DNA from: Candidatus Poriferihabitaceae bacterium | GTDB taxonomy: Bacteria > Pseudomonadota > Gammaproteobacteria > Arenicellales > Poriferihabitantaceae | Assembly: GCA_965214055.1 (NCBI GenBank) | Contig: OZ243931.1 | Span: 2,607,380-2,671,379 of the forward strand | Reading direction: 5' to 3' | Length of the DNA stretch: 64,000 nucleotides | Shown here: one piece after another, positions 3,790 to 22,711 of the stretch | Layout: each line of letters starts with the position of its first letter | Position numbering within the stretch: position 1 is the stretch's first letter | Position numbers and translations under genes: made by a program | Notes under the pieces: generated by a model | Told to the model about the DNA's origin: nothing | Databases searched by the model: none | What the model saw: only the letters and a program-made list of their open reading frames with translations

Positions 3790-6700
3790 TCAGGTTGGGG
3801 TGCCCAGAGCTTCCGGTGCTCCGGTGCGTGCCAGCCAGCCCCGGGTGTTTTCATAGATCATCAGTAAGCACGGCAGCAGGAACAGCACCAGGACAGTCGC
3901 AAAGGCCAGGCCAAATGCCATGCTGATGGCCATGGGAATGAGAAACTGGGCCTGGAGGGATTTCTCAAACAGCAGCGGCAGCAACCCCGCGATGGTGGTT
4001 AACGATGTGAGGATGACCGCCCGAAAACGCATGCAGGTGGCCTGGACAATGGCATCGCGGGACTGGACGCCCTGGGCGCGCAACTGCTTGTAAAACACAA
4101 TCAGGATAATGGAATCATTGACGACAATGCCGGACAAACCGAAAAAACCGAATAACGACAGGACAGTCAGGTCCAGTCCCATGACGACATGCCCCCAGAT
4201 CGCTCCAACGATACCGAACGGAATAATCGTTAACACCAGCAGTGGCCAGCCGTAAGAACCAAATACCCAAGCCAGCACCAGGTACATCAGGCACAACGCC
4301 AGACCCAGCCCCAGTTGCATGTCCTCCAGGGTTTCGCGCTCCTCGGCCTGGCGTCCTTCGAAAGAAAGCCGCACACTGTACTGGTCCGACAGGGTTGGCA
4401 GGGTATCCCGCTCCAACTCTGCCCGGACTTCGTTGGTATTGTTCACGGCAGGGTCGACATTGCCCACTACGGTAATGGCCAGCTTGCCGCCATCGTGCCG
4501 GATCGATTCAAAGCCTCTTTGCAATCGGACATGGGCCAGATTTTGAATGGGTGCTGACCGTCCGCTGGGAAGCATGATATCCAGCGTTGCCAGGCTGCCA
4601 ATGATATTCCGCTCCCGGTCAGGGAGTCGCAGGGTGACGTCGATGTCGTCAAAGCCATCCGACAACTCCTGTACGTTATACCCGTCATACGCCGCCCGCA
4701 ACTGGCGGGAAACATTGTCAACGCTCAGGCCCAGTACCTTCGCCGTTGGCGTCAGTTCCAGCACCATTTGTTCCCGGCCATAGGGGGAGTCATCCCCGAT
4801 TCCGGAGACCCCGGGTATATTGTGGAGTACATCCTGCAAGGCGATGGAGGCGGACTTCACCTGGTTGATATCTTCTCCGGTGATGCTGATTTCTATATCC
4901 TGGCCCGGGGGACCTGCCTTGGGTTCAAGAATGGACAGGTTTTCGATCTCGGGCACACGCGGCAGACGCTCTTTCCACGTCTGGATGATCGTACTGTTCC
5001 GGGTTTGTCGCTGGTCCGGGTCCCGCAATTCAACGCCGATGACACCGAAGTGGTCCCCCCGGCTCTTTATTTCTCCTTGCTGGATCCCATGACGGGACAG
5101 GACCAGATTGATGAAATCCTCGGACAGGTCCTGTTCGACTTCGTACAGGGTTTCTTCCATGACCTGCAGGTATGCCTTCACTTTATGTGCCGGGGTGCCC
5201 GAGACAAAGGCAACGTTGGCAAACAGCCGATCGGCCTCGGCGATGGGGAAAAACTGAAATCCGATGCGGCCGCTGGACAGGAATCCAACGGTGATGATCA
5301 GCAGTGCCGTGGACAGTGCCAGCGTGCTCCATCTGAACGAGATGGCTGCGGAAACGGCATTGTGAAACGGGCCATCGCGAAAGCGGTCAAACCCGCGGTT
5401 GAAGGCCACCCGCCACCGCGCAGGCTGGGTCTGCATTAACCGGCGAAACGAGTGCGTCAGGTGCCCGGGGAGGATCAGGAAACACTCAACCAAAGACGCA
5501 ATGATGACGCAGATCACGACCAGGGGAATGGATTGCATGATTGTGCCAATGGTCCCTCCGACCAGTAACAATGGCATGAATACGGCAATGGTGCTCAGTG
5601 AAGAGGAAAAAACCGGTCCCAGCATGCGCCGGGCTGAGCGTTCCGGGGCATTCACCGGGTCTTCACCGGTTCCGAACTGCGCCACGGCCTCTTCGCCCAC
5701 CACGATCGCGTCATCGACGATAATGCCGAGGGTCATGATCAACGCAAAAAGAGTGATCATGTTGATGGATCCCCCAACCAGATACAGTGCCGCCAGGGCG
5801 GCCATGAATGAGACCGGGATACCCACCGCAATCCACCAGGCAACCCGGGCATTCATAAAAAGAAACAGGATCAACACGACCAGCAATAACCCGCTAAGGC
5901 CGTTCTTTACCAGCAGTGAAATACGGCCCTGCAACAGTTGCCATTGCTCGTCGTAAACGATCAGTTCCACCCCATAGGGCACGTTGGGATGCGTTTCGTC
6001 CAGCCATTCGTGAAATGTTTTTGCCGCCTTCAGGCTGTCGCTGGACTCGGTTCGGTACAGGATCAGTTCGATGGCCGGTTCCCCCTCATGCTGGATGGAA
6101 ACCTGGCCATCCCGGGGTTTTCGGGAGATGTCCGCGATATCCCCCAGGGTGATCAGTCGGCCCTGCTCCTCGGCAACCACGGGCACACTGGCGAAGGAAA
6201 ACGCATCTTCACGTCGCTCATCAAAACGAAGCTGACGTGAAGTTTCATTCTGTCCAATCACCCCCATGGGGGAATTGCGCGACCACGAAGCGACCCGGCG
6301 ACCGACCTCATCCAGAGAAAGACCCAGTTCACGCAATCGAACCGAAGGAATTTCGATGGCAATCTGTTCTTTGGGAAGTCCGTTGATCTCGACTTTCGAA
6401 ATATCCCGGTTCAGCAATTCCGTCTCGAAACGATTGGCCAGATTGCGCAACTGGCTCAAATCGGTGGGACCCGTTATCAGCAGGCTCGCCACCCGTTCAT
6501 ACAGTGCTGCCTTGGTGACCACGGGGCGATCAATATCCACCGGCAGATCCTGAACCTGGTCGACCTGTTGCTCCACCTGGCTCACAGCCAGCCCCATGTC
6601 CGTGCCGGAGAAAAATTCCAGAGTGATGAGACAGACCCCTTCTGCGGAGGTTGAGGTCATCTTTTTGACGTGGTCAATGTTACGCAATGACTGCTCCAGC

Positions 6701-6927
6701 GGCAGGGTGATCAGGTCTTCGACGTCTTCGGCACTGGCGCCACTCCAGGTGATCTCCACCGTGACATTTTCAATTTTGAAGGTGGGGAAAAACTGGGTAT
6801 TGAGCTGTTGGATTCCCCATACGCCCGCCAGCAGCATCATGGCCATCAGCAGGTTTGCGGCCACCGGGTGACGGCTGAACAGGCCGATCAGATTGGATTG
6901 TTCGGGCACACGTAAGGCATCGTTCAT
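3790..6927 (-). CDS. RND efflux transporter permease (AcrB/HAE family)
   Basis: 1045 aa with two blocks of hydrophobic helices flanking large periplasmic loops. 'GIIVDDAIVVGE' is a TM4-type proton-relay motif. 4-nt overlap with the upstream adaptor gene. Confidence 0.9.
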   Translation of the reverse strand: MNDALRVPEQSNLIGLFSRHPVAANLLMAMMLLAGVWGIQQLNTQFFPTFKIENVTVEITWSGASAEDVEDLITLPLEQSLRNIDHVKKMTSTSAEGVCLITLEFFSGTDMGLAVSQVEQQVDQVQDLPVDIDRPVVTKAALYERVASLLITGPTDLSQLRNLANRFETELLNRDISKVEINGLPKEQIAIEIPSVRLRELGLSLDEVGRRVASWSRNSPMGVIGQNETSRQLRFDERREDAFSFASVPVVAEEQGRLITLGDIADISRKPRDGQVSIQHEGEPAIELILYRTESSDSLKAAKTFHEWLDETHPNVPYGVELIVYDEQWQLLQGRISLLVKNGLSGLLLVVLILFLFMNARVAWWIAVGIPVSFMAALAALYLVGGSINMITLFALIMTLGIIVDDAIVVGEEAVAQFGTGEDPVNAPERSARRMLGPVFSSSLSTIAVFMPLLLVGGTIGTIMQSIPLVVICVIIASLVECFLILPGHLTHSFRRLMQTQPARWRVAFNRGFDRFRDGPFHNAVSAAISFRWSTLALSTALLIITVGFLSSGRIGFQFFPIAEADRLFANVAFVSGTPAHKVKAYLQVMEETLYEVEQDLSEDFINLVLSRHGIQQGEIKSRGDHFGVIGVELRDPDQRQTRNSTIIQTWKERLPRVPEIENLSILEPKAGPPGQDIEISITGEDINQVKSASIALQDVLHNIPGVSGIGDDSPYGREQMVLELTPTAKVLGLSVDNVSRQLRAAYDGYNVQELSDGFDDIDVTLRLPDRERNIIGSLATLDIMLPSGRSAPIQNLAHVRLQRGFESIRHDGGKLAITVVGNVDPAVNNTNEVRAELERDTLPTLSDQYSVRLSFEGRQAEERETLEDMQLGLGLALCLMYLVLAWVFGSYGWPLLVLTIIPFGIVGAIWGHVVMGLDLTVLSLFGFFGLSGIVVNDSIILIVFYKQLRAQGVQSRDAIVQATCMRFRAVILTSLTTIAGLLPLLFEKSLQAQFLIPMAISMAFGLAFATVLVLFLLPCLLMIYENTRGWLARTGAPEALGTPT

Positions 6928-8156
6928 TGGGCTTCAAATCCGTCAACGTCCACTTCCAGCCCATCAATTGCCAGGGGCAACCGTGATTGCAGAATCAGTT
7001 CGCCGTTCTGGAAATCGGTTCCGTCCAGCACCAGAAACGTTCCGGTTTCATCCTGCCGCCGGCCCAGGAGCGTGATTTTCCGGGAGTGCAGTTTTCCCTC
7101 TTTGATCAGGTAAACCTGGCGGTTTCCATACAGCGCATTGAGCTTGACCAGGACCGCATTGTCGATCTTCGGCAGGGACAACTGCAAGGAGACGGTACGG
7201 CCCAGTTCCGGCAACGGTTGTTCGCTGCGAAAAAAGGCATCGACACCTCCCTGACCCTCGGCAACACTGGAGGACAGTCGGTCCAGGGTCAGGGGGATGC
7301 CGCTTTCAAGGGTGCGGGCCTGTATGCGCTGGTTGCTTTCCAGTGCTGTGCGAAGAGGCCGGATATGCTGACTGGGCACCTGGGTGCGGATTTCAAGCTG
7401 TTGGTCATCGTAAAGCCTGACCAGCGACCCGCCCCGCGCCCGTCTGTCACCCGGGGAGACCATCACCTCCACGATTCGCCCGGAAAATGGAGCCACAACA
7501 CGGCTGCGTCCGATGTCCAGCTGTGTGCGACGCAAGGCGGCCCGGGCCTTGTCCAGTCGCGCATTCCACAATTTCTGCCTGAAAGAAAAATCCGCGATCG
7601 ATTGATGACGCTGGGTAATTGCGAGCTGCTGTCGTTGTTTGTTTTTCAGCGCGGCATCCATCGCTGCCTGGCTGCCCGCCGCAGACTGCACCAGAGTACG
7701 GGCGCGGGCGACCTCCTTGTCGATAATGGCCAACAACGCCTTTTCAATGTCCAACGCATGTTGATCGGCAGCATGGCGTATGTCATCGCTGTTGATCTGG
7801 GCTTCAATTTCCGCCACCTCGGCCCGACGTTGCACCAGTTCGAGTTCGCTGTCCCGGCGGTCCATCGCAATCAGCAACTGCCCCTTTTTCACGGAATGGC
7901 CCTCCAATACCAATACCTGGTGAACATCCGCTTCGATGCTGGCCGTCAAGGTGCTCAGGTTCGGGGTTTCCACCTGTCCGTACAGGGTCAGTGTCGGCGA
8001 GATCGTCTGTTTTTCAATCACCCCGGCAGCAACCACCGGGGTACGCACCGTCCTTTCCAGTTGTTCCGGGCTTTTTGCGCTGGAGATGAGATACATGAAG
8101 CCGCCAGCACCCAGTCCCAGAATCAGTAACGGTAAAATGAACTTTACAATTTTCAC
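6924..8156 (-). CDS. RND efflux periplasmic adaptor (HlyD/MFP family)
   Basis: 410 aa with an N-terminal membrane anchor, a long coiled-coil hairpin region ('ELELVQRRAEVAEIEAQ...') and beta-barrel-like C-terminal part. Operon partner of the permease. No outer-membrane factor gene is adjacent. Confidence 0.8.
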   Translation of the reverse strand: MKIVKFILPLLILGLGAGGFMYLISSAKSPEQLERTVRTPVVAAGVIEKQTISPTLTLYGQVETPNLSTLTASIEADVHQVLVLEGHSVKKGQLLIAMDRRDSELELVQRRAEVAEIEAQINSDDIRHAADQHALDIEKALLAIIDKEVARARTLVQSAAGSQAAMDAALKNKQRQQLAITQRHQSIADFSFRQKLWNARLDKARAALRRTQLDIGRSRVVAPFSGRIVEVMVSPGDRRARGGSLVRLYDDQQLEIRTQVPSQHIRPLRTALESNQRIQARTLESGIPLTLDRLSSSVAEGQGGVDAFFRSEQPLPELGRTVSLQLSLPKIDNAVLVKLNALYGNRQVYLIKEGKLHSRKITLLGRRQDETGTFLVLDGTDFQNGELILQSRLPLAIDGLEVDVDGFEAQ

Positions 8157-8798: not shown

Positions 8799-9308
8799 CT
8801 ATAGTCCGAGATTCACAAAGGTTTGTAGTGGCAAAAAGAGGCGGCGCGACCAGGACAGGAAAGGCTTGAATCCGTAATGCTCGTAAAAAGCACTGGCTCG
8901 ATCGCTCTTGGCTTCGACGACGACCGCGTAGACTCCTAGCGTGTTGCTCACACGCACGACGCGGTGGATGGCGTCGAGCAACAAATTCTCGCCGAGACCT
9001 CGGCCCTGGTATCCATGAGCAACGGCAAGCCGCCCAATCAGTGCCACTGGTACAGGATAGTGCGGTAACCGCTTGACCAGTGCTGCCGACAGATCGCCCT
9101 TTTCAAAACTCGCCGCGCTCAAGGTGTAATAGCCAAGTATTTCTCCGGGCTGTTCAGCAACCGCGACGTAGACCTGTGCAATGCGTCGCAGGGCATCCTG
9201 CGAGGCTTGACGGTGGAGATAGGCATTGAGAGCAGGCTCTCCACAGGAAAAGGCGGTGCGGTCGTGATGCGAGCCGAGGAGCTCGATCAGGAACGGCGAT
9301 TCATTCAC
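8799..9308 (-). CDS. GNAT-family acetyltransferase toxin (TacT/AtaT-like)
   Basis: 169 aa. 'FSCGEPALNAYL...', 'LIGRLAVAHGYQGRGLGENLLLDAI' and 'ASAFYEHYGF' GNAT motifs. 8-nt overlap with the upstream DUF1778 gene. Confidence 0.85.
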   Translation of the reverse strand: MNESPFLIELLGSHHDRTAFSCGEPALNAYLHRQASQDALRRIAQVYVAVAEQPGEILGYYTLSAASFEKGDLSAALVKRLPHYPVPVALIGRLAVAHGYQGRGLGENLLLDAIHRVVRVSNTLGVYAVVVEAKSDRASAFYEHYGFKPFLSWSRRLFLPLQTFVNLGL

Positions 9309-9606
9309 CCATGCGCTCGCGGTAGCGGTGGGCGGCGCGTCTCAGAGCGGCATTCGGGGTAGGTGGGTTGAGCAATGCCTCGTGGAAGGCATCCCAGTCG
9401 GTTGCCGACAACACGATCCGCTCGCGGGCCTCAATGACCCGCTCGGCCGCGGCAACGGCGTTGCTCAGCACGAACCGGCTGATGGTGGTTTCTTCGTAGG
9501 CGGCTGCCCGTTCCAGCTTGTACTTGCTTTGGATGTCGAGGCGAAGGTGCATGCGCTGGTGTTTTAATTTGGTTGCTTCGGCCACTGTCTTCTCTTCCGT
9601 TTCCAT
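9301..9606 (-). CDS. DUF1778 (TacA-like, RHH) antitoxin
   Basis: 101 aa. 'LRLDIQSKYKLERAAAYEETTISRFVLSNAVAAAERVIE' is typical of DUF1778 antitoxins paired with GNAT toxins. Confidence 0.85.
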   Translation of the reverse strand: METEEKTVAEATKLKHQRMHLRLDIQSKYKLERAAAYEETTISRFVLSNAVAAAERVIEARERIVLSATDWDAFHEALLNPPTPNAALRRAAHRYRERMGE

Positions 9607-9764: not shown

Positions 9765-10010
9765 TCAAGCCAAGGACAGAAAAACCCCGTGCCGTAAAAA
9801 GAAAAATGAGCAGTTATCCATTATGAAAACAGGAAACTCTGTCATGCCGCTCGTGGGTCTCAATGACCCGTTCGGCCGCGCGGCAACAGCGTTGCTCAGC
9901 ACGAACTGGCTGACGGCATTTCCTTCGTAGGCGGCTGCCTGTTCCAGCTTGTGCCTGCTTTGAGTCTTGAGATACCAATGGTTCTTCATTGGCTCTTTTC
10001 TTTCGCTCAC
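9765..10010 (-). pseudogene. Frameshifted partial second copy of the DUF1778 antitoxin gene, with no toxin partner
   Basis: DNA at 9847-9965 aligns by eye with 9418-9535 of the intact gene at high identity, with a 2-nt insertion (gccgcGCggcaac). The translation 'HKLEQAAAYEGNAVSQFVLSNAVAA' then goes out of frame. Confidence 0.75.
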
Positions 10011-10128
10011 GCAGAGTTATGTGTGGAGTGTTTGGGGGAATCCAAGTGTTGTTACTGTTATCGTATACCGAACGAAAGCAACCGACTGGTATCGATATGC
10101 TTTCGCAGATCATTGCCGAAGGTTCAAG

Positions 10129-10998
10129 TCAACACACCAGCGAACGCATCAATTGTTCCGAACAGCCGGCGGTCCACCGACTTTGATGGGCGGTAGCCAT
10201 GTTTGTTTTTCTGATGAGCCAATCTTTATCTCGACCAAATGTTGCCAAAGTTTCCTTACCCGGATGAGGTGACACCACAACGACTGCATCGTGAGAAATC
10301 GGGAGGCAACTCTGCTCGTTTTCTCCTGTCTTGAAAATGGTAATACCATGACTTCCGATCACAAAGCTTCTTTTTGGAATACCAATAACACCAAACAACA
10401 AACCGGTTTCCCTGCAAAATTTTTCCTCCTGCTGGGTAAGATGACTATCCTCCCCAGCAGCGAATCTTGCATCGACATTATGTTCAACTTTTTCCATCAA
10501 CCGTACAGTTTCTCTGTCTTGGTAAAATGAGTCCTTATCAGGAGGCGGATGGTTCTGTTGTTCGGTACACTCTTTTTCCGCTTCATGGAATATATCTTCA
10601 AAATTATTGCTCGACATTACTCTCTGTTGAGATTCGCGAGTCCTTCGCGCCATGGAACACACGAATCGTTTGATAGTGTCCGAATCTTCTTCAGATAGTT
10701 CGGGGCATTTTTTGCTTCGGACCTTTTCCATTATGTTCCGGATGACAGGAGCAGTTCGACTTTCAAACTCTTGCAAATCCCTTTCATATGAATAATCTTT
10801 CCTGGTCAAGGCACCTGTATCAGGATCATAGACATGCGTGGTGTACAGGTCCTTTTCTACAAAACTGTTATGTGGTTTGGCTTTCCAGACACATCCTGTT
10901 TTCGTATCTCCCATCCAGAAATAACCTTCGGAATTGCAAAAATTCCTGAGCAGAAATTGTGGAATATAATGCTGTCGTTTCGGGTTATTGGAACTCAT
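10129..10998 (-). CDS. DUF4238 domain protein
   Basis: 289 aa. N-terminal 'RQHYIPQFLLRNF' is the DUF4238 signature. ATGA overlap with the upstream 102-aa ORF. Confidence 0.8.
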   Translation of the reverse strand: MSSNNPKRQHYIPQFLLRNFCNSEGYFWMGDTKTGCVWKAKPHNSFVEKDLYTTHVYDPDTGALTRKDYSYERDLQEFESRTAPVIRNIMEKVRSKKCPELSEEDSDTIKRFVCSMARRTRESQQRVMSSNNFEDIFHEAEKECTEQQNHPPPDKDSFYQDRETVRLMEKVEHNVDARFAAGEDSHLTQQEEKFCRETGLLFGVIGIPKRSFVIGSHGITIFKTGENEQSCLPISHDAVVVVSPHPGKETLATFGRDKDWLIRKTNMATAHQSRWTAGCSEQLMRSLVC

Positions 10999-11303
10999 CC
11001 GAGTTGATCTTTACAGTTGATATTCTTAAATGCACAGGTGCCATTTTGCCCGGGCAAGGATTCTACACGCAACAACACAGATTGTGTCAGCCAGAAATAA
11101 CAGCACCGAATCTTTAACGACTCCTCGCGTGTTGTTGGACCGTGATCTCCTGGTTGGCACCAGATTTGCGAGTCCCGGATGAGCAGCCAGTCAACCCGAT
11201 GGTATTTCCTTTCCTGTCGGATTGAAAAATCGGCCAATCCCCTTGAATCAACTGCCTTCCCTGGGAGGGAGAGAAAAGTCTTCATCTCGTATCCATCGGT
11301 CAA
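10995..11303 (-). CDS. Hypothetical protein (102 aa), first gene of the DUF4238 operon
   Basis: It is the only ORF in this interval, and its stop overlaps the DUF4238 start (ATGA at 10995-10998). No recognisable motif, and it is Cys/Trp-rich, so coding status is uncertain. Confidence 0.4.
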   Translation of the reverse strand: MTDGYEMKTFLSLPGKAVDSRGLADFSIRQERKYHRVDWLLIRDSQIWCQPGDHGPTTREESLKIRCCYFWLTQSVLLRVESLPGQNGTCAFKNINCKDQLG

Positions 11304-11512
11304 AATGAATTAGAATCGATTCCAGGGGCAAGTGCTCTTTGTGAGCAGGATTGCCAACCATCCGGAAGAGGCGGATAATTTTTAAAATGTCATGTCAATC
11401 GTAATCACGACGAAGGCCCCTGCCGGGGGGAGAGTTGAAAGGGCAGCCCAAACAGGATGAAGCTCACCCTGGCCCTGAAACCGGCATCCCGCGTTGACAG
11501 TTTGAAAACTGC

Positions 11513-14500
11513 ATGCCGGGAAATTCCAGTTGCCTCTGCGATGTATTTCCATCGAACACCGCTTCTTCACAACCCGGGCACCGGGGAGGAGCGACGTATC
11601 CGGTGACCCCAGTGTTTTCATTGCCCGGAGGCCTGCTTTCCATTGATCTGGAGGTCGACCCGAAGAACAACCATATCTTCGCTTTCGCTGCGGTGAATCC
11701 GGATACCCGTGAAACCCTGATCCACGACCGAAAAACCAGTTTTGCCAGGGCGTTGACCAAGCTGGACCAGATCGCAGGGGGAGTATCCTGCCTGGTTGGC
11801 CACAACCTCATCGCCCATGACCTGCCGCAATTGAAAGCGTGCCGCCCCGGCCTGAAGCTGCTGGAGCGGCCCGCCCTCGATACCCTGATGCTGAGTCCCC
11901 TCGCTTTTCCCCAGAATCCCTATCACCGGCTCATCAAGCACTACCAGGACGGGGGACTCATCCGGGGGCAGATCAACAACCCTGAACTCGATGCCCGGCT
12001 GGCACTGGATGTCCTGCAGGAGGAATTCCGGGCCCTGCAGCAAATCCCCGGGGACCTGCTGCTGTGCTGGCACTGGCTGAGCACACTGGAACCGGGGGGA
12101 GAGGGTTTCGATCTTTTTTTCTCTGCCCTGCGACAGTCGGGACGGCCCGACGATCACACCGCACTGTCCGCCATACAACGGCAGCTGGATGGACAGGGCT
12201 GCCAGACCCATGGCAGGGAAGTGCTGGAGCACCCCACCGGCAAGGGATGGCCCCTGGCCTATGCACTGGCCTGGCTGTCCGTCAGTGGAGGCAATTCAGT
12301 CATACCGCCCTGGGTGTGCCGCCAGTTTCCCGATACGCTTCAGATCGTGAAAGTTCTGCGCGACACGGCCTGCGCGGACCCGGCCTGCCATTGGTGCACG
12401 GATCGGCACGATCCGGTGAAGGAACTCAAGCGTTGGTTCGGTTTTGAGACGTTCCGGGCGGAACCCAAAGATGAATCCGGTCAATCCATGCAACAGACCA
12501 TTGTCCAGGATTCGATGGCGGGAATGTCTGTGCTGGGGTTGCTGCCCACCGGGACCGGGAAGTCGCTGTGCTACCAGATTCCGGCCCTGTCCCGATACGA
12601 CAAGATCGGGGCCCTGACGGTGGTCATCTCGCCTCTGGTGGCCCTGATGTCCGACCAGGTAGCTGGCCTGGAAAGGCGCAATATCACGTCCTGCACCACG
12701 ATCAATGGCATGCTGTCCATGCCCGAGCGCAAAGAGGCACTGGACCGGGTGCGGCTGGGAGATGCCAGCATCCTGCTCATCTCCCCGGAACAGCTTCGGA
12801 GCACTTCGGTACGAAGGGTCCTGGACCAGCGGGAAATCAGCTTCTGGGTGGTGGATGAGGCCCACTGCCTGTCTAAGTGGGGGCACGACTTCCGGCCCGA
12901 CTATCGCTACATCGGGCGCTTCATTCGCGAGAAATCGGAACGCGAAGGCGGGGTGCCGCTGGTCATGTGCCTGACTGCGACGGCGAAACCGGACGTGGTC
13001 ACCGACATCACCCGGCACTTTCAGGACAAACTGGATATCCCTCTCAAGGTCGTGGACGGTGGCAGCGAGCGCAGCAACCTGGTTTTCGAGGTGATTCCCA
13101 CCACCCCGGACCGAAAATTCCATCATGTCCATGAACTCCTGTCCATGGCACTGCCGTCCGGTTCTTCAGGAGGGGCCATCGTGTACTGTGCGACCCGGCG
13201 TTCCACGGAAGAATTGACCGAATTCCTGCAGGCCAAGGAGATGGAATCCAAATATTTTCACGGGGGACTTTCCCCGGAAACCAAAAAGGAAGTGCTGGAG
13301 GGCTTTACCGACGGGAAACTGCAGGTGATCACGGCAACCAATGCCTTCGGCATGGGGATTGACAAACCGGACATCCGTCTTGTGGTGCATGCCGACATTC
13401 CCGGCTCGCTGGAAAACTACCTGCAGGAAGCCGGCCGGGCCGGTCGGGACGGCGGCACAGCACGGTGTATCCTTTTCCATACGCCGGATGATGTGGAGCG
13501 CCAGTTTGGCATGTCCGCCCGTTCACGACTGACCCAGCGGGAAATCCAGGGAGTGCTGAAAGCCCTGCGAAAACTGTCAGCCAGGGACAAGAGTGGCAAT
13601 GAAGACAGTGTGGTCGCCACCGCTGGTGAAATTCTCAACGAGGATGATGAATTTCTTGTGGAGCGGGACTTTGGCACCGAAGACACGAAAATCAGGACAG
13701 CGGTTGCCTGGCTGGAGGAATCGGTCCTGCTGACCCGTGAGGAGAATATCGTGAACGTGTTTCCTTCCTCTTTGCTGGTCAAGTCATTCGAGGATGCCCG
13801 GATTCGGCTCTTACAGAACCGTAAGTTGACCGAAAAGTACCGGGGACAGTTGCTGGAAATTACCCGGGCACTGATGAATGCCAGTGCAGTGGAGGGTATT
13901 ACCACCGATGAACTGCGCAACCTGGTGGGCCTGAGCCCGAATGGGATCCGGGGGGCCCTGTATAACCTGGAACAGCTGGGTATCGTCAGCAATGACATGG
14001 CATTGACTGCCTATGTGCACAAGGGGGTTCAGCGCGCTTCCACCAAACGTCTTCAGGAGGCCGTAGAACTGGAGTGCGCCCTGATCGAACAACTCCGCCT
14101 TTCGGCCCCGGATATGGAAAAGGGAGAAAAATTCCCCCTGCACCTGCGTCTCATCGCCCAGGCTCTTCGGGATGAGGAGGTTCCGAACCCCTTGCCGGAA
14201 CGGGTCTGGCGCATTCTCCGCAGTCTCCAGTTCGACGGATGGGACGAGGATGGAGGCAGGGGGAGTCTGTCATTGCGCAAAATTGACGCAGAACAGGTCA
14301 ACGTGACCCTGCAGCGGGAATGGTCCCTATTGAAAGAAACCGCCGAGATTCGCCGTACGGCGGCACACCGGTTGCTGGAACACCTGTTGTTGTCGCTGCC
14401 GGACGGTCGCCGGGGAACCGACATTCTGGCCGAAACCACCGTGGGAAAAATGCTCGATGCGATCCGCTCAGATATTGAACTGCTCAATTCCGGTAACCGG

Positions 14501-16804
14501 AAATTCGACAAGCTCCTGGACCGGGCCCTGCTGTGGCTGCACGAGCAGGAAGTGATCCGCCTGAACAAGGGCCTGTCGGTATTCCGCTCGGCCATGACCA
14601 TCCGGCTGGACAAAAGCAACCCGAAGCGCCAGTTTGTAAAAGCCGATTTCGAGCCGCTCAGCCTGCATTACGAGGGGCAAGTGCAGCAGATTCATGTCAT
14701 GGCGGAATTTGCACTGCAGGGTCTCGAATCCATGGATCAGGCCATTCGCCTGTCCATTGACTATTTCAGCCTGGAGCAGGACCAGTTTCTTCACCGCTGG
14801 TTCCCTGACCGGGAAAAGGAAATTGGCCGCCAGATGTCCCCGGCATCGTGGGAGAATATTGTCGAAAGCCTGAACGATTCCACGCAAAAGAGGATCGTCG
14901 CCGACAACCGGGAACACACCAATGTGCTGGTGCTCGCCGGGCCGGGCTCCGGAAAGACCCGAGTTCTGGTGCATCGAATTGCCTATCTGATCCGTGCCAG
15001 GCGGGAAAATCCCCGAGGGATTCTCGCCCTGACGTACAACCGGCATTCGGCGGTTGAAATCCGCCAGCGCCTTCGGGAGTTGATCGGAAAGGATGCGCGC
15101 GGCGTCATGGTGCTGACCTGCGATGCGCTGGCGATGCGGCTGGTCGGCGCCAGTTTCTCGGGCCGGGCCGAATCCCGGGACCATAAGGTGTTCGAGGAAA
15201 TCATGAATCAGGCCATTGCGCTGCTTCGCGGAGAGGGTTTGGAGCCGGAAGAGGCGGATGACCAGAGGGAACGGCTCCTGGCCGGCTTTCGCTGGATTCT
15301 GGTGGACGAATACCAGGACATCAATGAACCCCAGTATGCCTTGATTTCCGCCCTGGCCGGCCGGACCCTGGAATCCGAGGACAACAAGCTTGCCGTCTTT
15401 GCGGTGGGGGACGATGACCAGAACATCTATGCTTTCAACGGAGCATCGGTGCGGTTCATCCGGCAATTCGAAGAGGACTACGGCCCGGTCCCCACGTACA
15501 TGATCGGCAACTACCGTTCCACCGGCCATATCATCAACGCCGCCAATACCCTGATTGGACCCGCCGCCGAACGAATGAAGGCCGATCATCCCATCCAGGT
15601 CAACCGGGCACGCACCGGGGAGCCGTCCGGAGGGGCCTGGACCCGGCTTGATCCGGTTTCCCGGGGCAAGGTGCAGATTCTGGATGCCGGAGGTAACCCG
15701 GTCTCCCAGGCACAGGCCGTCATGACCGAATTCCAGCGTCTGGCAGGGTGTTCACCGGACTGGGACTGGGCTTCCTGTGCCGTGATCGCCCGAAACTGGA
15801 AGTACCTGGACCCCGTCCGGGCCTGGTGCGAATCGAACTCCATACCCGTTCAGATGGGAAACGAGGAAATACCGGGTTTCTGGGGCTTGCGGGAAACCCG
15901 GGAGCTGTTGGATTTCCTGAGAAACCGCGAGGGACCACCGATCGGTCTTTCGGAATTGCGTTCCCATTTCAACCATCGTCACGGGAATCGCTGGTACAGG
16001 CTGCTGGAACAGGCGATGGACGAATACCACCTCGAAACCGGCAACGGTGGAGGGATTGTTCCCGGGCATTTCATCGAATGGCTGGCGGAATGGGGCCGGT
16101 CGGTGTACCGCCGCCAAAAGGGACTCCTGCTGGTGACTGCACACGGTGCGAAGGGTCTCGAATTCGATCACGTCGTCGTCCTGGATGGGGGGTGGCGTGG
16201 AATTGGCCGGGACGAAGATCGGGATGCTCCCCGACGGCTGTATTACGTGGCCATGACCCGTGCCCGTCAAACCCTTGCGCTGGCGCGTTTCCACCCACGG
16301 CATGCAGGTGAAGCGGCACCTCCTCCCCATTTTCAGGGTAAGAAATATTCGATTCATCCCAATCCGTTGCTCGAAACCCTGGTACAAAGCTCCGATGTGC
16401 TGCTGCGTTGTACGGTGGAGGTTCCACCCGCTGGCCCGGAACTGTTCCGGCGCTACCTGCTGTTGAAAATGAAGGAGGTGGACCTGTCCTACGCGGGACG
16501 GTACAGGGAGACCCACCCGGTCCACTCGGCCATCCGCGACCTGAACCCGGGAGACCCGCTGTTCCTGGTCCGGTCGAAATCCAGGGCGAAACGATGGGAA
16601 CTGGCCGATCATGCCGGAAAAGTGGTGGGCCGGCTGTCGTCAAAATTCAACTGTCCGGCGAACATGAAATTCCGATCCGGGACAGTGTACGCCATTGTGA
16701 CACGGGACCAGGACCAGGGTGAAGGGGACCCGAAATACCGTTTACTTCTCAAATGCAGGACCTGGGAAATCGTGGTGCCGGAACTCATCTTTGAACCCGG
16801 GTAA
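11513..16804 (+). CDS. Giant fusion protein: DEDD-type 3'-5' exonuclease + RecQ-family SF2 helicase + UvrD/Rep-family SF1 helicase
   Basis: 1763 aa, with these modules:
- Exonuclease (~11630-12080): 'SIDLEVD' (D45/E47) and 'LVGHNLIAHDLPQL'.
- RecQ core (~12440-13510): 'PTGTGKS' (K350), 'VVDEAHCLSKWGHDFRPDY', 'TATA' and 'AGRAGRDG'.
- UvrD core (~14880-16290): 'GPGSGKT' (K1148), 'ILVDEYQDINEPQY', 'VGDDDQNIYAFNGA', 'YRSTGHII', 'AHGAKGLEFDHVVV' and 'YVAMTRARQTL'.
- C-terminal ~170 aa is unassigned.
The start may be the in-frame GTG near 11603, downstream of a GGAGGAG. Confidence 0.9.
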   Translation: MPGNSSCLCDVFPSNTASSQPGHRGGATYPVTPVFSLPGGLLSIDLEVDPKNNHIFAFAAVNPDTRETLIHDRKTSFARALTKLDQIAGGVSCLVGHNLIAHDLPQLKACRPGLKLLERPALDTLMLSPLAFPQNPYHRLIKHYQDGGLIRGQINNPELDARLALDVLQEEFRALQQIPGDLLLCWHWLSTLEPGGEGFDLFFSALRQSGRPDDHTALSAIQRQLDGQGCQTHGREVLEHPTGKGWPLAYALAWLSVSGGNSVIPPWVCRQFPDTLQIVKVLRDTACADPACHWCTDRHDPVKELKRWFGFETFRAEPKDESGQSMQQTIVQDSMAGMSVLGLLPTGTGKSLCYQIPALSRYDKIGALTVVISPLVALMSDQVAGLERRNITSCTTINGMLSMPERKEALDRVRLGDASILLISPEQLRSTSVRRVLDQREISFWVVDEAHCLSKWGHDFRPDYRYIGRFIREKSEREGGVPLVMCLTATAKPDVVTDITRHFQDKLDIPLKVVDGGSERSNLVFEVIPTTPDRKFHHVHELLSMALPSGSSGGAIVYCATRRSTEELTEFLQAKEMESKYFHGGLSPETKKEVLEGFTDGKLQVITATNAFGMGIDKPDIRLVVHADIPGSLENYLQEAGRAGRDGGTARCILFHTPDDVERQFGMSARSRLTQREIQGVLKALRKLSARDKSGNEDSVVATAGEILNEDDEFLVERDFGTEDTKIRTAVAWLEESVLLTREENIVNVFPSSLLVKSFEDARIRLLQNRKLTEKYRGQLLEITRALMNASAVEGITTDELRNLVGLSPNGIRGALYNLEQLGIVSNDMALTAYVHKGVQRASTKRLQEAVELECALIEQLRLSAPDMEKGEKFPLHLRLIAQALRDEEVPNPLPERVWRILRSLQFDGWDEDGGRGSLSLRKIDAEQVNVTLQREWSLLKETAEIRRTAAHRLLEHLLLSLPDGRRGTDILAETTVGKMLDAIRSDIELLNSGNRKFDKLLDRALLWLHEQEVIRLNKGLSVFRSAMTIRLDKSNPKRQFVKADFEPLSLHYEGQVQQIHVMAEFALQGLESMDQAIRLSIDYFSLEQDQFLHRWFPDREKEIGRQMSPASWENIVESLNDSTQKRIVADNREHTNVLVLAGPGSGKTRVLVHRIAYLIRARRENPRGILALTYNRHSAVEIRQRLRELIGKDARGVMVLTCDALAMRLVGASFSGRAESRDHKVFEEIMNQAIALLRGEGLEPEEADDQRERLLAGFRWILVDEYQDINEPQYALISALAGRTLESEDNKLAVFAVGDDDQNIYAFNGASVRFIRQFEEDYGPVPTYMIGNYRSTGHIINAANTLIGPAAERMKADHPIQVNRARTGEPSGGAWTRLDPVSRGKVQILDAGGNPVSQAQAVMTEFQRLAGCSPDWDWASCAVIARNWKYLDPVRAWCESNSIPVQMGNEEIPGFWGLRETRELLDFLRNREGPPIGLSELRSHFNHRHGNRWYRLLEQAMDEYHLETGNGGGIVPGHFIEWLAEWGRSVYRRQKGLLLVTAHGAKGLEFDHVVVLDGGWRGIGRDEDRDAPRRLYYVAMTRARQTLALARFHPRHAGEAAPPPHFQGKKYSIHPNPLLETLVQSSDVLLRCTVEVPPAGPELFRRYLLLKMKEVDLSYAGRYRETHPVHSAIRDLNPGDPLFLVRSKSRAKRWELADHAGKVVGRLSSKFNCPANMKFRSGTVYAIVTRDQDQGEGDPKYRLLLKCRTWEIVVPELIFEPG

Positions 16805-16876
16805 GCGGAACCCGAACGAGGCAGTGCCAGCACATCCCCCCTGTGCCTGGGAGGGCCATCAGTGGGCGCTGGACAG

Positions 16877-19573
16877 TCAGGATCGGGTTTTCAGCAACTG
16901 GCTCAGGGTATACAGAATCTCCAGGGCTTCCCGGGGGGTGGCATCATCCACTGAAATTGCCCGTAACCGGGCAATTACGGCCTGTTCTTCCGGCCGGACG
17001 GGTGAAAACAGGCTGGCCTGAACGGGGGGAGAATCCATTGGGTTTTGAATATTCTCCACATACTGGTCTTCCAGGCCGGACAGTTTGAGCCGGGAATCCT
17101 CGATCACCTCATCCGGGATTCCCGCGAGCCGGGCGACCTGGAGCCCATAACTCTGGCTTGCCGGCCCATTTTTTACCCGGTACAGGAAGATGATTTCACG
17201 GCCATGTTCCACGGCATCCAGATGGACATTGACCGCGGATTCGAGTTGGTCCACCAGCCCGGTCAACTCAAAATAATGGGTCGAAAACAACACGTAGGAC
17301 TTCACCCGGTTTGCCAGGTCCCTGGCACAGGCCCAGGCCAGGGCCAGGCCGTCAAAAGTGCTGGTACCCCGGCCGATTTCGTCCACCAGTACTAGGCTGT
17401 TCTGCGTGGCATTGCGCAGAATCTGGGCCATTTCAGTCATTTCGACCATGAAGGTGGACCGCCCGCCCGCCAGGTCATCGGCGGCACCGATCCGGGTAAA
17501 GATCCGGTCAACCGGTCCGATTCTTGCTGAATTCGCCGGAACGTAACTGCCGGTGAAGGCGAGCAGGACAATCAGGGCAACCTGGCGCATGTAGGTGCTT
17601 TTTCCTCCCATGTTCGGCCCGGTAATGATCTGCATTTTTGTTCTGTCGTTCAGGGCGATGGAATTGGCAATAAAGCTCGATTCCAGGACTTTCTCAACCA
17701 CCGGGTGGCGTCCATCCTCGATTTCAAGCACCGGAGTCTCCACCAGTTCAGGGCGGTGCAGGTTGAGGGACTGGGCCCTCCCTGCAAAATTATTCAGGGC
17801 ATCCAGAATCGCCAGACTGTTTGCGCAGTGCAACAGGGTCTGGATATGGGGCGAAAATTGTTCCAGCAACTCGTTGTACAGCCACTTTTCCCTGGCCAGG
17901 GCCAGGGACCGGGCACTCAATATCCTGTCTTCAAATTCCTTGAGTTCCACGGTAATGAATCGCTCGGCATTCTTGATGGTCTGCCGGCGGACGTAGTCCT
18001 GTGGCACCTGGTCCGACTGCGAGCGCGGGAGCTCGATGTAATACCCGTGCACCCGGTTGTAGCGAACCCGGAGATTCGCAACCCGGGTACGTTTTTTTTC
18101 CCTTTCTTCCAGTTCGAGCAGGAATTGGGCCGAGTCCCGTTGCAGAAGACGGTATTCCCCGAGCTCTGCATCATACTCATCCCGAAGCATTCCCCCGTCC
18201 CGGATCACGCTGGGGGGCTCATCGACCACTGCGCGTTCCAGGAGGTCATGGCATTCGCTTTGGGGCGCCAGGGAATCCAGTAACGAGATCAGGAGGGCGG
18301 AAGAGGTGGATTCGAGCGCCCTGCCCAGTACGGGAAGGACGGAAAGCGCCCCCCTCAGGCGGATCAAGTCCCGCGGCCGGGCGGTTTTCATGGCCACCCG
18401 GGCCAGGATGCGTTCCATGTCCCCGACCTGGCGCAACAACGGCTGGAACTCCTGATAGCGCCCCTGGTGCAGAAGCCAGTCCACGGCCTCATGGCGCTGG
18501 ATGAGTTCCTCCCGGTTCCGGCTGGGGCTGTGAAACCATCTGCGCAGCATTCGGGCCCCCATGGGAGAATCACAGTGGTCAAACAGTTTCAGCAGGGAGC
18601 TTTCCCGGCGACCATCGGACCCGGATTCGATTTCCAGGTTCTTTCGGCTGACCTCGTCCAGGATGACGACATCCTGGGTGTCTTCGTACTCGATACGGTG
18701 AATATGCGGGGTGTTCTCGCCATGCAGGTCTCGAATATAGAGAATCAATGCGCCGGCTGCCCGGGTCGCCACCGGAAACCGGTCGCTTTCAAAGGCAGCC
18801 AGACTGTGGGTTGCAAACAGGTCACACAGGGTGTCGGTGGCGCGCGATGGGTCGAAGTACCAGTCCGGAATCCCGGTTTCATTTTCCCGGCTGGACAATC
18901 CCGACTGGTTTTGCCCAACCAGAATCTCTGCCGCATTGATCCGGGTCAGATCATGGGTCAGCTGTTCATGGCTGCGGACTTCCAATCCCCTGAATCGACC
19001 GCTTGAAATTTCAAGGGTGGCGATGCCGATGGTCTCCCCCTCCTGCAGCACCGCGGCGGTCAGGTTTTCATGGTGGTCGGAAAGGAGATTTTCTTCGGTC
19101 AGGGTTCCCGGGGTGATGACCCGGACCACCTTGCGTTCGACGGGGCCTTTTGTGGTGGCGGGGTCGCCGGTTTGTTCACAGATGGCGACCGGAATATTCT
19201 TGTGCACCAGTTTCGCGAGGTACTGGTCCACGCTGTGGTAGGGGACGCCGGCCATGGGGATGGGAGAGCCCGCGGATTTCCCCCTGGCGGTGAGGGTGAT
19301 ATCCAGCAGTTTGGCGGCTTTTTCCGCGTCCTCGTAAAACAGTTCGTAAAAATCTCCCATGCGGTAAAGCAACAGGGTCTCCGGATACTCGGACTTGATG
19401 GACAGGTACTGCTTCATCATCGGGGTGTGGCCGGCACCACCGGAGCCGGGCTTCGACGTTTTCAGCGTCCGGGTGGTATTCTTCACTACGGGGCGGGTCG
19501 GTCTTTGGGGAAGCGGGATTTGACGATACCCAGGATATCGCTGAATATTCCCGGGCTTGCGGCAATGACGCAC
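16877..19573 (-). CDS. mutS: DNA mismatch repair protein MutS
   Basis: '[35 protein letters not shown]', '[13 protein letters not shown]' and '[12 protein letters not shown]'. The listed coordinates are the maximal ORF. The real start is probably between ~19420 and ~19489, because the suhB stop is at 19486-19488. Confidence 0.95.
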
Positions 19574-20367
19574 CCGGTGCTCAGGTGGTCCTGTTCGCCC
19601 TGAAAACCGGTCACGAGGCCGCCCGCCTCCCGGACGATCAAACTGCCCGCAGCCATGTCCCAGATATTCAGGCCGGATTCCCAGTAGGCGTCGCCTCGGC
19701 CACAGGCAACATACGCCAGGTCAAGGGCCGCGGAACCGGAATGCAGGGATTGGGATACCAGGGGGAAAATGTCCCTGAAACACGCCGTCCAGTTGTCGAA
19801 CTGACCGGGATGGCGGGAAGGAAATCCAGACAGGACCAGGCTGTTCGACAGGCGCCTCTGACCGCTGACACGGATGCGCCGGTCATTCATCTGTGCACCG
19901 CTTCCCCGGGAGGCATGAAAGATTTCATTGCGAAGCGGGTCAAAAATAATGCCATGTTCCATGCGGTTTTTATGCCGCACGCCTATCGAGATCGCAAAGT
20001 TGGGATGCCCGTGCAAAAAATTGGTGGTGCCGTCAAGGGGATCAATGATCCACTCGAAGGCATCTTTTGTGGTCCCTTTTCCAGGAGAATGCTTCGTGCC
20101 GCTTTCCTCTGCAACAATGGCATGGTCCGGATAATGGTGGTGTATGCAGCCGATGATTTCCTCTTCCGCCATGTGGTCCACTTCGCTGACAAAATCGTTT
20201 CGGCCCTTTTGGGTGACTGGAAACTGGTCCATTCGATCAAAATGGCGGACGATGAGGTTGCCAGCCCGCCGGACGGCCTTGATTCCGATATTAATGAGTG
20301 GGTTCACATTTTGTTCCGGTAATTCATGATAGGAGCTGGTTCCCTTGACGAGGTTCCTGGTGCACAA
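19486..20367 (-). CDS. suhB: Inositol monophosphatase family protein (SuhB)
   Basis: 'AEESG', '[15 protein letters not shown]' and '[20 protein letters not shown]' motifs. Divergent from trmJ, as in many Gammaproteobacteria. The start is probably downstream of the maximal ORF start. Confidence 0.9.
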
Positions 20368-21165
20368 TCACTCCCCGATACGGTGCACTGTACAAAGAAC
20401 ATGAAAGCACTAAATTATATCCGAGTCGTGCTGATGGAACCTACCCATCCGGGGAATATTGGTGCCACCGCCCGGGCCATGGCCAACATGGGGGTGAAAC
20501 AGCTCGCGTTGGTCAATCCCGGGGAGTTCCCCAGTTCCATTGCCACCCGCCGTGCCGCCGGTGCGGATTCCATACTGGAAAAGGCCAGAGTGTACCATCG
20601 GCTGGAGGATGCGGTGGCGGATTGTACTTTGGTGTTGGGGACCACTGCCAGATTGCGTTCCATTGAATGGCCTTCCCTGGAGCCCTGGGAGGCCATGTCC
20701 CGTGCCGGGGACCATGCCCGGCATTCCCGGGTGGCCATTCTTTTTGGCCGGGAAAGCAGCGGATTGACGAACGAGGAAATGGATATTTGCCACTGGCTGG
20801 TGCGCATTCCCGCAAGTCCCGAATTTGGCTCCCTGAATCTGGCCTCGGCGGTGATGGTCATGCTGTATGAACTGCGGAAATGCCTGGAATCGGATCAAGG
20901 CGAAACTCTCCGGAAAAGCAAGGAATCCAGGGCCACCGTGCAGGACCTACAATATCTGTACAGGCATCTGAAGCAGGTCTTGAATCGAATTGAGTTTATC
21001 AATGGCCGGTCGACGATGTTGATGCGGAAAATTGTGCGCATGTTCAATCGAATACACCCCTATGAACAGGAAGTGAATATGCTTCGGGGGATTCTGTCTT
21101 CCATTGAATCCAGGCTGGACAATCCGGAAAAAAGGGGGCACAGGGACAACTTCCCGGAGTCGTGA
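20326..21165 (+). CDS. trmJ: tRNA (cytidine/uridine-2'-O)-methyltransferase TrmJ (SpoU/TrmH class)
   Basis: 'IRVVLMEPTHPGNIGATARAMANMG', 'LFGRESSGLTNEE' and 'SLNLASAVMVMLYE'. Likely start is the ATG at 20401 (MKALNY...). Confidence 0.9.
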   Translation: MIGAGSLDEVPGAQSLPDTVHCTKNMKALNYIRVVLMEPTHPGNIGATARAMANMGVKQLALVNPGEFPSSIATRRAAGADSILEKARVYHRLEDAVADCTLVLGTTARLRSIEWPSLEPWEAMSRAGDHARHSRVAILFGRESSGLTNEEMDICHWLVRIPASPEFGSLNLASAVMVMLYELRKCLESDQGETLRKSKESRATVQDLQYLYRHLKQVLNRIEFINGRSTMLMRKIVRMFNRIHPYEQEVNMLRGILSSIESRLDNPEKRGHRDNFPES

Positions 21166-21637
21166 CCCCGGGGATTGGGATTTTACCGGCCCGCGGGCAG
21201 TCTCCCACGCTCGAATACATCCATCCCAAACGACATCGGGTTCCTGGTCTTCTTGCGATCAACCCTGCCGCCCGGGAGTGCTCATACCGTTCCGCATGTT
21301 GTTTGGGTGTCAACAGGGACGGTTGCGGGGACGCCGCCTGGTGGAACTCATTGATGGCCGTTCGACCCAGACGTTTCAGCTTGCTTCAAATACAACATTT
21401 ACAGTGGCACTATCTTTGGGGTTCTGCCAAAAAGCCCCCGAAACCCACAGGAGCCTCGGTTCGAATCCAAAACGGAACGGACCATGGATGTGAAGTTGAG
21501 AGTCCGTCGGATTGCAGCACTCTGGAGCACAGGACCGTTTGAGTCGACTCGACCACACACCGGTTTCAGTTGTAGCTCAGGTTGGAAACATTTCCAGCAT
21601 GCCGATTGACACAAAAGTTTATCATTAGTAAACTTAT

Positions 21638-21904
21638 TTGATGTATATTATTCACTATCAGAAACAAGCTGCTTACAGACTTATTCGCATGCCACCTAAA
21701 CTTGCAAGTAAAATTCGTGACAAGGTTGAAACAATAGCAAATAATCCCTATCAACATCATCCGAATATTACATGGCTGCAAGGGCAGAAAAATTGTTTCC
21801 GGCTCAGGGCAGTAAATTGGTGCATAGTCCATGCTTTGGAAAAAGAGCGAAATTTGCTTCTGATCGCAAAAATTGATCAAAGAGGACAGGTGTATAAACG
21901 ATGA
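21638..21904 (+). CDS. RelE/ParE-superfamily type II toxin
   Basis: 88 aa. 'AAYRLIRMPPKLASKIRDKVETIANNP...FRLRAVNWCIVHALEKERNLLLIAKIDQRGQVY' follows the RelE/ParE pattern. 4-nt overlap with the downstream HTH gene (toxin-first, HigBA-like order). Confidence 0.75.
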   Translation: MMYIIHYQKQAAYRLIRMPPKLASKIRDKVETIANNPYQHHPNITWLQGQKNCFRLRAVNWCIVHALEKERNLLLIAKIDQRGQVYKR

Positions 21905-22302: not shown

Positions 22303-22655
22303 AGTGGACGCAATTTGATTTCTGTCGTGCGCCGTGGAAGGGCGCGTTCCTGGTTGGTGCGTTCAGGGAGGGATGCGCGGTAGTCGGGTTGGTGACAGAC
22401 ACAGACCTGAGGCGTACCGGTCAGGAGAGATCAAAGGGGTAGTGGGATGAGGTGCACCACTCGGTGAACGGATGGTTCCACCGAGTCGACATCCCGTTTT
22501 TTGATGGCCGATGCAGTGTGTGTAAGACGCCTGATCGATCTGAAAGCTCGCCGCCGGAAATCAGCACGTCCGGTTCGGCAAGCAGGGAGTGGAGATGTGG
22601 CCAATGCGGAAATAGCGGATCTACTCGCAAAACCGAACGGGCGGGAAGGGAACAG

Positions 22656-22711
22656 CCTCCGCTTGCCCGTGCCCGTGCCACCCTCCGCTTGCCCGTGCCC
22701 GTGCCACCCTC
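22656..22711. repeat. 26-bp tandem duplication (2.15 copies) with nested GCCCGT repeat
   Basis: Read directly: period 26 from 22656 to 22711 (CCTCCGCTTGCCCGTGCCCGTGCCAC...). It lies in a 510-bp gap with no credible ORF. Confidence 0.85.

Follow-up and report, generated by a model that had tools for sequence, protein, structure and literature searches.

A conserved bacterial fusion of a DnaQ-like exonuclease fold with RecQ-family and UvrD-like helicase cores, encoded by an accessory and mobile gene

A single gene at 11513..16804 on the forward strand of the 64,000-nucleotide stretch of contig OZ243931.1 analysed here (the window), from Candidatus Poriferihabitaceae bacterium, encodes a protein of 1763 amino acids (aa) in which a DnaQ-like exonuclease fold, a four-cysteine (4-Cys) domain, a RecQ-family helicase core, an array of winged-helix-like units and a UvrD-like helicase core are joined in one chain. 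The protein belongs to a conserved, widespread and uncharacterised family of such fusions, for which we establish the architecture, the conservation of the catalytic motifs, the size, the lack of a partner gene and the mobility. By analogy with its relatives the protein is probably an unwind-and-resect machine, and a role as a barrier against foreign DNA is our tentative preference.

The open reading frame (ORF) named in the original prediction, which was made from the letters alone, is present and intact, starts with ATG and ends in a stop codon, and the residues D45/E47, K350 and K1148 had been numbered correctly. A search of 5.8 billion proteins gave more than 120 collinear, full-length homologues that are 1700-1800 aa long, with 61-91% identity and 98% coverage, and the shorter database entries proved to be collinear fragments of the full-length architecture. 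The fusion is therefore not an assembly or frameshift artefact, a possibility that the prediction had itself raised and that could be ruled out.

Domain architecture and catalytic motifs

The DnaQ-like (DEDD) 3'-5' exonuclease fold covers residues 40-178 (11630..12046, like all parts of the gene on the forward strand) and was recognised from an AF2 model, Foldseek and profile searches and residue counts. Because Pfam was silent on residues 1-326, with no family (RNase_T included) even at E<=10, an independent test of the exonuclease reading was needed. A profile from 35 diverse homologues, which share 32-51% identity with the query, was run against the PDB and matched the exonuclease domain of Staphylococcus aureus DinG (8zef, E 1.3e-4) and, more weakly, those of Cas2-DEDDh, Pol II and T7 polymerase. 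The AF2 model of residues 29-325 has a mean pLDDT of 92.8, and Foldseek matched it at a probability of ~1.0 to the DinG exonuclease domain (8zef, 9ii8), Pol II, T7 polymerase, a DnaQ domain and Cap18; viral DnaQ, RNase H-like and YprB-like proteins were matched as well. A Nostoc plasmid protein labelled '3'-5' exonuclease' was rejected as evidence for this domain, as what carries the label is the C-terminal (UvrD) piece of a copy that is split.

The acidic tetrad of the fold (D-x-E in Exo I, D in Exo II, D in Exo III) is almost universally kept: D45 and E47 were each present in 233 of 233 homologues, D103 in 252 of 255 and D160 in 262 of 264. Of the features that define a DEDDh/DnaQ domain, the fold and the four acidic ligands are thus present, whereas the fifth residue, a His or Tyr in Exo III, is not. 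Asn155 aligns with the catalytic Exo III His of DinG, and the position holds Asn in 251 of 264 homologues, otherwise Ser (8), Gln (3) or Gly (1), and never His or Tyr. Directly before the Exo III helix lies an invariant loop, P-Y137-H138-x-L-x-K142 (AF2 pLDDT ~77), and its Tyr137-His138 dyad may supply the general base. The original prediction had described three modules with intact motifs, had named degenerate catalytic residues as a weakness that alignment might expose, and had proposed a Pfam annotation. On alignment the RecQ and UvrD motifs and the four acids hold up and the Exo III His does not; DEAD, Helicase_C, UvrD-helicase and UvrD_C were all found by Pfam, leaving only the exonuclease unrecognised.

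These observations bear on whether the N-terminal domain is weak or dead, acting as a 3'-end or single-strand binding module in what would be a protein with two motors and no nuclease, a translocase or remodeller for displacing proteins or migrating branches. The absence of the Exo III general base from all 264 homologues, the failure of Pfam RNase_T to recognise the domain and structural matches that are modest (E about 1e-4) are consistent with such a protein. However, a dead site would be unexpected because the four metal-binding acids are essentially invariant down to 35% identity, and the invariant Tyr137-His138 together with Lys142 could provide the base. We regard a weak or dead domain as unlikely.

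The exonuclease fold is followed by a helical 4-Cys domain (residues 179-300, 12047..12412), which ends directly at RecQ motif 0 and is modelled by AF2 at high pLDDT. Its cysteines, C230, C287, C292 and C295, are invariant columns among the 35 diverse homologues and are kept in at least 99% of 222-253 homologues, and they presumably form a metal site for Zn or Fe-S. The superfamily 2 (SF2) core of the RecQ family occupies residues 301-665 (12413..13507) and carries motif 0, PTGTGKS, DEAH, the aromatic-rich loop HCLSKWGHDFRPDY and QEAGRAGRDG, with the Pfam domains DEAD at 326-496 and Helicase_C at 538-647. Its score of 296.8 bits with the NCBIfam model recQ_fam (TIGR00614, cut-off 219.8) makes it a member of the RecQ family. 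With the RecQ equivalog TIGR01389 it scored 338.8 bits against a cut-off of 640.2, the match being limited to model positions 5-360 of 591. Sequence matches of residues ~300-665 in the PDB were the RecQ, RECQ5, BLM, RECQ1 and WRN cores (E 1e-49 to 1e-61), all ending at lobe 2, and neither these nor Pfam, including E<=10, gave any RecQ Zn-binding, RQC or HRDC domain. There are zero Cys in the ~140 residues after the RecQ core.

Between the two motors lies a linker of 449 residues (666-1114, 13508..14854), predicted by AF2 (pLDDT 83) as four or five repeated units of three helices and two strands. It shows weak local likeness to winged-helix domains of the Cdt1, RTP, ROQ, RepE and DtxR type, with no Pfam family and no significant structural match (best E 0.027). 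The second motor is a UvrD/PcrA-like core of superfamily 1A (SF1A) at residues 1115-1592 (14855..16288), with GPGSGKT, DEYQD, VGDDDQ, YRST and TRAR. Conserved motifs Q and I-VI together with UvrD_C place it in the SF1A UvrD/Rep/PcrA group; Pfam assigned UvrD-helicase PF00580 (E 1.5e-40)/AAA_19 from residue 1125 and UvrD_C PF13361 at 1538-1591 (E 4e-12), and UvrD1, UvrD, PcrA and Rep were its sequence matches in the PDB. With the UvrD and PcrA equivalogs it scored 164-173 bits against cut-offs of 911-1144. In both motors the Walker A, DExx and arginine-finger motifs are kept across homologues down to 35% identity. Scores so far below the equivalog cut-offs bear out the earlier view of a dedicated multi-module DNA machine that is no orthologue of the housekeeping RecQ or UvrD.

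The variable C-terminal tail (residues 1593-1763, 16289..16801) is the least conserved part of the protein, with 44-50% identity where the motors have ~70% and no invariant residue past the edge of UvrD motif VI, beyond which Pfam, PHROGs and PDB profile searches gave nothing. A RecB-type nuclease in the tail was considered and rejected, as no conserved catalytic residues and no PD-(D/E)xK domain were found; a hidden one is unlikely because the tail has no detectable relatives or invariant residues. The lengths originally given for the linker and the tail were right. The linker is not purely helical as had been described, consisting instead of helix-strand, winged-helix-like units, and remote-homology and structure searches brought only the weak local likeness for the linker and no match for the tail.

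Family size, mobility and genomic setting

The family is large and its architecture is fixed. A search with only the N-terminal 292 residues found, at E<=1e-3, 1166 of 1.84 billion clusters (represented at 50% identity), and the complete members of these are all 1670-1890 aa long. A metagenome scan gave at least 560 confirmed relatives among the 600 pattern matches listed, and a single-protein search of genome contigs gave two close relatives only. Full-length copies reside on plasmids or chromids of Alpha- and Gammaproteobacteria, namely Thiothrix, Rhizobium, Microvirga, Cereibacter, Sulfitobacter, Paracoccus, Croceicoccus and Allochromatium, and, at ~30% identity, of Cyanobacteria (Nostoc, Calothrix, Scytonema) and Bacteroides/Phocaeicola. 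The only label that homologues carry from PGAP is 'RecQ family ATP-dependent DNA helicase'.

Members of the family are accessory genes that move horizontally and are then kept in syntenic positions. In locus L012, whose host is Nitrospirota-like by MnmG, the fusion gene has 65.5% GC in flanks of 53% GC and is 81.5% identical to the copy in L006, from a host of 67% GC; this mismatch together with the close identity makes horizontal transfer evident. Across 63 loci the GC content of the gene regresses toward ~60-64% (slope 0.73); the gene is richer than its flanks by over 6 points in 13 loci and poorer by over 3 points in 6. The gene was 6-14 GC points above its flanks in low-GC hosts (L012, L013-L016, L017, L007, L033, L064, L084) and below them in a small number of high-GC hosts, L050 (-10) among them. 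Vertical inheritance as a core gene, which the original prediction had regarded as fatal to its reading, does not apply to the family overall, given the GC mismatch and the close copies in distant hosts.

Some copies appear to be disrupted. In L001, an Arenicellales metagenome-assembled genome (MAG) and one of the two genomes closest to the window, TGG is changed to TAG at the near-invariant Trp254 (L001 8700-8702) and there is a 1-nt indel near the 5' end (~7990-8030), so that either this copy is a pseudogene or its changes are errors of long-read assembly. The copy on a Nostoc plasmid is split into three coding sequences. Because of these two cases the gene appears to be dispensable, unless the changes in L001 are assembly errors.

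An integrase gene lies close to some copies. In L017, on a Mb-sized contig, a phage-integrase-family gene (7256-8008) overlaps the helicase start by 8 nt and hypothetical genes follow, and the two may be parts of an integrative element carrying the helicase. Tyrosine recombinase genes were found within ~4 kb of the copies on Allochromatium and Nostoc plasmids. Together with 26 plasmid records in which the match covers at least 80% of the fusion protein, and with eight matches in viral contigs, these genes would suit a protein that is cargo of mobile elements, serving plasmids or integrative elements, for example in replication, transfer, stabilisation or anti-defence, and not the host. On the other hand, no element-type neighbour gene recurs in the 76 loci compared, many copies are chromosomal among housekeeping or metabolic genes, and most of the carrier plasmids are non-mobilisable megaplasmids or chromids. 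We consider such a cargo role very improbable.

Among the 597 ORFs within 5 kb of the gene in the 76 loci we found no conserved partner gene, the commonest neighbour family occurring in 7 of 76 on either side, and the fusion gene is a single-gene unit. In L012, L014 and L031 it sits between the atp operon and mnmA-parAB-gidAB, where the helicase is 81% identical against 72-95% for its neighbours, a housekeeping-like divergence. In L013, L015 and L016 it lies between an aminotransferase gene and hicB-parA-RND genes, with a VapBC-type module inserted in one genome, and L010 and L011 have a common gene context. As the insertions differ between otherwise syntenic genomes, it seems that the gene borders an insertion hotspot.

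Defence genes occurred within ~10 kb in 5 of the 14 contexts inspected, one of the five being the window itself with its DUF4238 gene, which we take to be a validated defence gene. The other four held CRISPR I-D, type I restriction-modification (RM) with HNH, a methylase with a helicase, and a GmrSD_C-like gene. Toxin-antitoxin (TA) modules (HipA, RES, BrnT, HicB, VapBC, MazE-PIN) were directly adjacent in several further loci. TA modules beside the helicase (HicB-like, FitA-PIN, MazE-PIN, HipA, RES and BrnT) were seen in many unrelated loci: downstream in L013, L015 and L016, and in L018 (13487-14127), L005 (16122-17718) and L008 (1116-7530 and 15456-15978). The link to defence genes is therefore no more than modest, and plasmid location accounts for part of it.

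In the window the fusion gene is divergent from the DUF4238 gene (10129-10998) and convergent with mutS (16877-19573). From 11122 to 21208 the helicase gene, mutS and what follows are collinear with L001 at 92.7% nucleotide identity, and helicase gene and mutS are arranged likewise in L002 (84% nucleotide identity). The 2.7-kb segment 8453-11122, with a TA module (GNAT toxin, 8799-9308; TacA antitoxin, 9301-9606) and the DUF4238 gene, is replaced by ~320 bp in L001; an ORF of 99 aa lies at 9814-10113, and the right boundary of the cassette falls inside an ORF of 102 aa (10995-11303). The cassette has 49.3% GC, compared with 59.4% in the helicase gene, 58.5% in mutS and 57.6% in the window. Being absent from L001 and different in GC, the DUF4238/TA cassette forms the island; the helicase gene belongs to the backbone, beside an insertion hotspot. 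This reverses the original argument, in which the helicase lay in an accessory island that spoke for defence: the cassette is an indel and the helicase is collinear backbone. An association with DUF4238 is likewise not borne out, as the cassette is missing from L001 and no neighbour family exceeds 7 of the 76 loci. DUF4238 was rejected as a functional partner on the same absence from L001, and PADLOC models gave no matches to the DUF4238 and TA genes of the window. The DUF4238 domain is mentioned in a preprint on prophage-encoded defence hotspots.

Upstream of the fusion gene, a consensus scan gave a candidate sigma-70-like promoter, TTGCCA-17-GATAAT (11351..11379, forward strand), in the intergenic region. 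The stretch around it is conserved with L001 and partly with L002, and the ATG with ~200 bp upstream is kept in both of these closest genomes. An SOS (LexA) box or another conserved operator was looked for in this region and none was seen; the palindrome ACAGTTTGAAAACTG directly 5' of the ATG was rejected as an operator, being absent as a conserved element from L001 and L002.

Further out, a RecD2-type helicase of superfamily 1B (OB_YrrC, HHH_RecD2, SH3_13; 1379-3628) lies 8 kb upstream, followed by AcrB and HlyD-type efflux genes (3790-8156). RecD2, the fusion gene and mutS are three DNA-metabolism genes, all collinear with L001. Beyond mutS and SpoU there is a second variable patch (21901-25120), with an Xre-type helix-turn-helix (HTH) gene (21901-22302), an AAA_14+DUF4143 ATPase (22813-24021; PADLOC candidate PDC-S01, E 1e-90) and a DDE transposase fragment (24614-25120); the sequence stays similar to L001 only as far as 22879. 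An ORF of 2678 aa at 26004-34040, with Calx-beta repeats, 65-71% GC and a strong AT skew, is probably a large surface or adhesin-type protein.

Proposed mechanism and role

RecQ-type SF2 and UvrD/PcrA-type SF1A motors translocate 3'→5' on single-stranded DNA, and DnaQ-like domains remove nucleotides from 3' ends. From these properties of the relatives we infer the polarity, the substrates and the role of the fusion, which is probably a machine that unwinds and resects DNA in the 3'→5' direction. The protein would be loaded onto DNA that is 3'-tailed, nicked or branched and would then unwind it, with the winged-helix array and the 4-Cys domain serving as DNA clamps on the duplex or branch, and the exonuclease would degrade the 3' end left behind or released by the motors. 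The motors could act in tandem on one strand, or on the two arms of a fork or D-loop; either is more plausible than simple end entry, because motors of the same polarity cannot both enter a duplex end on opposite strands. As a result 3'-OH ends would be removed and recombination or replication intermediates dismantled. Likely targets would be D-loops, intermediates of rolling-circle or recombination-dependent replication, and nicked or linear incoming DNA. Such an activity would fit a protein that restricts foreign DNA as it enters or replicates, or one that processes forks and counters recombination in an accessory role.

Between these uses we lean slightly, and only tentatively, toward a stand-alone one-gene barrier against foreign or unwanted DNA over a core repair paralogue, because of the mobility, the dispensability, the single-gene cassette behaviour and the recurrent TA, RM and integrase neighbours. 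The defence reading of the original prediction thus survives in part: the gene is accessory and mobile and some copies stand beside RM, CRISPR, GmrSD-like or TA genes, although the argument from its setting fails. A more specific proposal, and a rather doubtful one, is that of a new one-gene immunity system in which RecQ and UvrD motors, a DEDD exonuclease with its base moved to the Tyr-His loop and a 4-Cys metal domain would unwind phage or plasmid intermediates and destroy their 3' ends.

Several results weigh against a nucleolytic barrier of this kind. Both motors are of classic repair families, and with the canonical Exo III His missing the nuclease activity is not assured. The fusion gene is backbone and not island in this window, and it is syntenic in three lineages, in one of them among core housekeeping genes, with the rate of divergence tested in one. 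Relatives were found in only 8 of 2.9 million viral contigs. Pfam showed no enrichment of defence families when 150 ORFs lying up to 2.5 kb from the gene (58 loci) were set against 150 others at distances above 5 kb; the near ORFs were mostly ordinary genes, and only Xre-type HTH was higher, with 4 against at most 1 among the far ORFs. PADLOC has no model for the protein and gave only generic matches of DpdF, PsyrT and GajB to the helicase cores, and literature searches on an exonuclease-RecQ-UvrD fusion found no paper or experiment on the family.

A credible alternative, which we consider quite possible, is accessory genome maintenance along WRN- or MrfAB-like logic. The protein would then act on the stalled forks, D-loops and nicked or damaged duplexes of its own host, having been acquired horizontally and kept for repair or anti-recombination. 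Labour would be divided so that UvrD clears proteins or RecA and unwinds from nicks, RecQ handles branched DNA and the exonuclease trims the released 3' strand. The nearest relatives of the motors are cellular RecQ and UvrD/PcrA, and the catalytic motifs are all highly conserved, with a median identity of 75% among 120 clusters. Syntenic retention at housekeeping-rate divergence beside the atp operon in the Nitrospirota-like genomes, and retention also in L013, L015 and L016, suits maintenance as well, as do neighbours that are mostly ordinary genes, the adjacency to mutS in three related genomes and occasional repair genes nearby (HhH-GPD in 2 loci, an SbcCD-like pair, nfo). However, mutS is convergent and not co-transcribed, and its adjacency is confined to this lineage, and the nearby repair genes are, by our rough estimate, no commoner than chance. 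The patchy distribution, the mismatch in composition, the close homologues across distant hosts, the plasmid copies beside RM, CRISPR or TA genes and the apparently disrupted copies in L001 and Nostoc also speak against maintenance, as does an upstream region with no LexA-type box and only the one unconserved palindrome.

The outcome would be informative either way: it would add a defence system that consists of a single gene, or bring to light a repair module that is traded horizontally. Its spread reaches from Pseudomonadota to a Nitrospirota-like genome, Cyanobacteriota and Bacteroidota. The change of the Exo III His to Asn together with the invariant Tyr-His loop offers a testable variant of DEDD catalysis, and the protein would give a rare chance to study the cooperation of SF1 and SF2 motors on one substrate.

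Comparison with known systems

The closest parallel in layout is eukaryotic WRN, in which a 3'-5' exonuclease fold likewise lies N-terminal to a RecQ core in one chain (WRN helicase match E about 1e-48), with exonuclease and helicase expected to have the same polarity. However, the exonuclease of the fusion is nearest to the DnaQ/DinG type and is without the Exo III Tyr or His, whereas that of WRN is of the DEDDy RNase D-type. The fusion also has no detected RQC Zn/winged-helix or HRDC domains, and it adds the 4-Cys domain, the winged-helix-like array and a full UvrD-type motor. It is an independent bacterial fusion and no WRN orthologue.

DinG of S. aureus and Bacillus subtilis, itself a bacterial exonuclease-helicase fusion, gave the best profile and structure match (8zef, 9ii8). 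The helicase of DinG is an SF2 enzyme of the XPD/DinG type that moves 5'→3'. DinG differs from the fusion in keeping the Exo III His where the fusion has Asn155, in the lack of a second motor and in a helicase partner that is not RecQ. With bacterial RecQ and RqlH/PsyrT the fusion shares motifs 0-VI and the aromatic-rich loop, and the PADLOC PsyrT model matches it at 1e-85; nevertheless it falls below the RecQ equivalog cut-off, and the C-terminal Zn/winged-helix/HRDC region is replaced. A PsyrA/RqlI partner, as expected for PsyrTA or RqlHI, does not recur in the 76 loci, and the downstream gene in the window is the convergent mutS.

The second motor has the SF1A motif set and UvrD_C in common with UvrD, PcrA, Rep and GajB, and the GajB models match it (~1e-48) in the generic helicase core only. 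There is no GajA-like TOPRIM partner as in Gabija; the neighbours are DUF4238, TA genes and mutS, none of them recurrent in the 76 loci. The Dpd system comprises the dpd cluster (dpdA-K) and modifies DNA with 7-deazaguanine. No dpdA-K genes are present in the neighbourhood within the window or in the annotated homologue loci, and the DpdF models match the RecQ core only. RecBCD, AddAB and AdnAB resemble the fusion in combining helicase motor(s) and a nuclease in one machine. Their nucleases, however, are RecB-type PD-(D/E)xK domains and their motors are of SF1 only, those of RecBCD having opposite polarity, whereas the fusion has a nuclease of the DEDD type, no PD-(D/E)xK domain that could be found, and motors of two superfamilies with nominally the same polarity. 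The fusion thus belongs to none of WRN, DinG, RecBCD/AddAB/AdnAB, Gabija, Dpd and PsyrTA. Should the predicted activities hold, it would represent in bacteria the exonuclease-helicase logic of WRN, extended by a second, unrelated motor.

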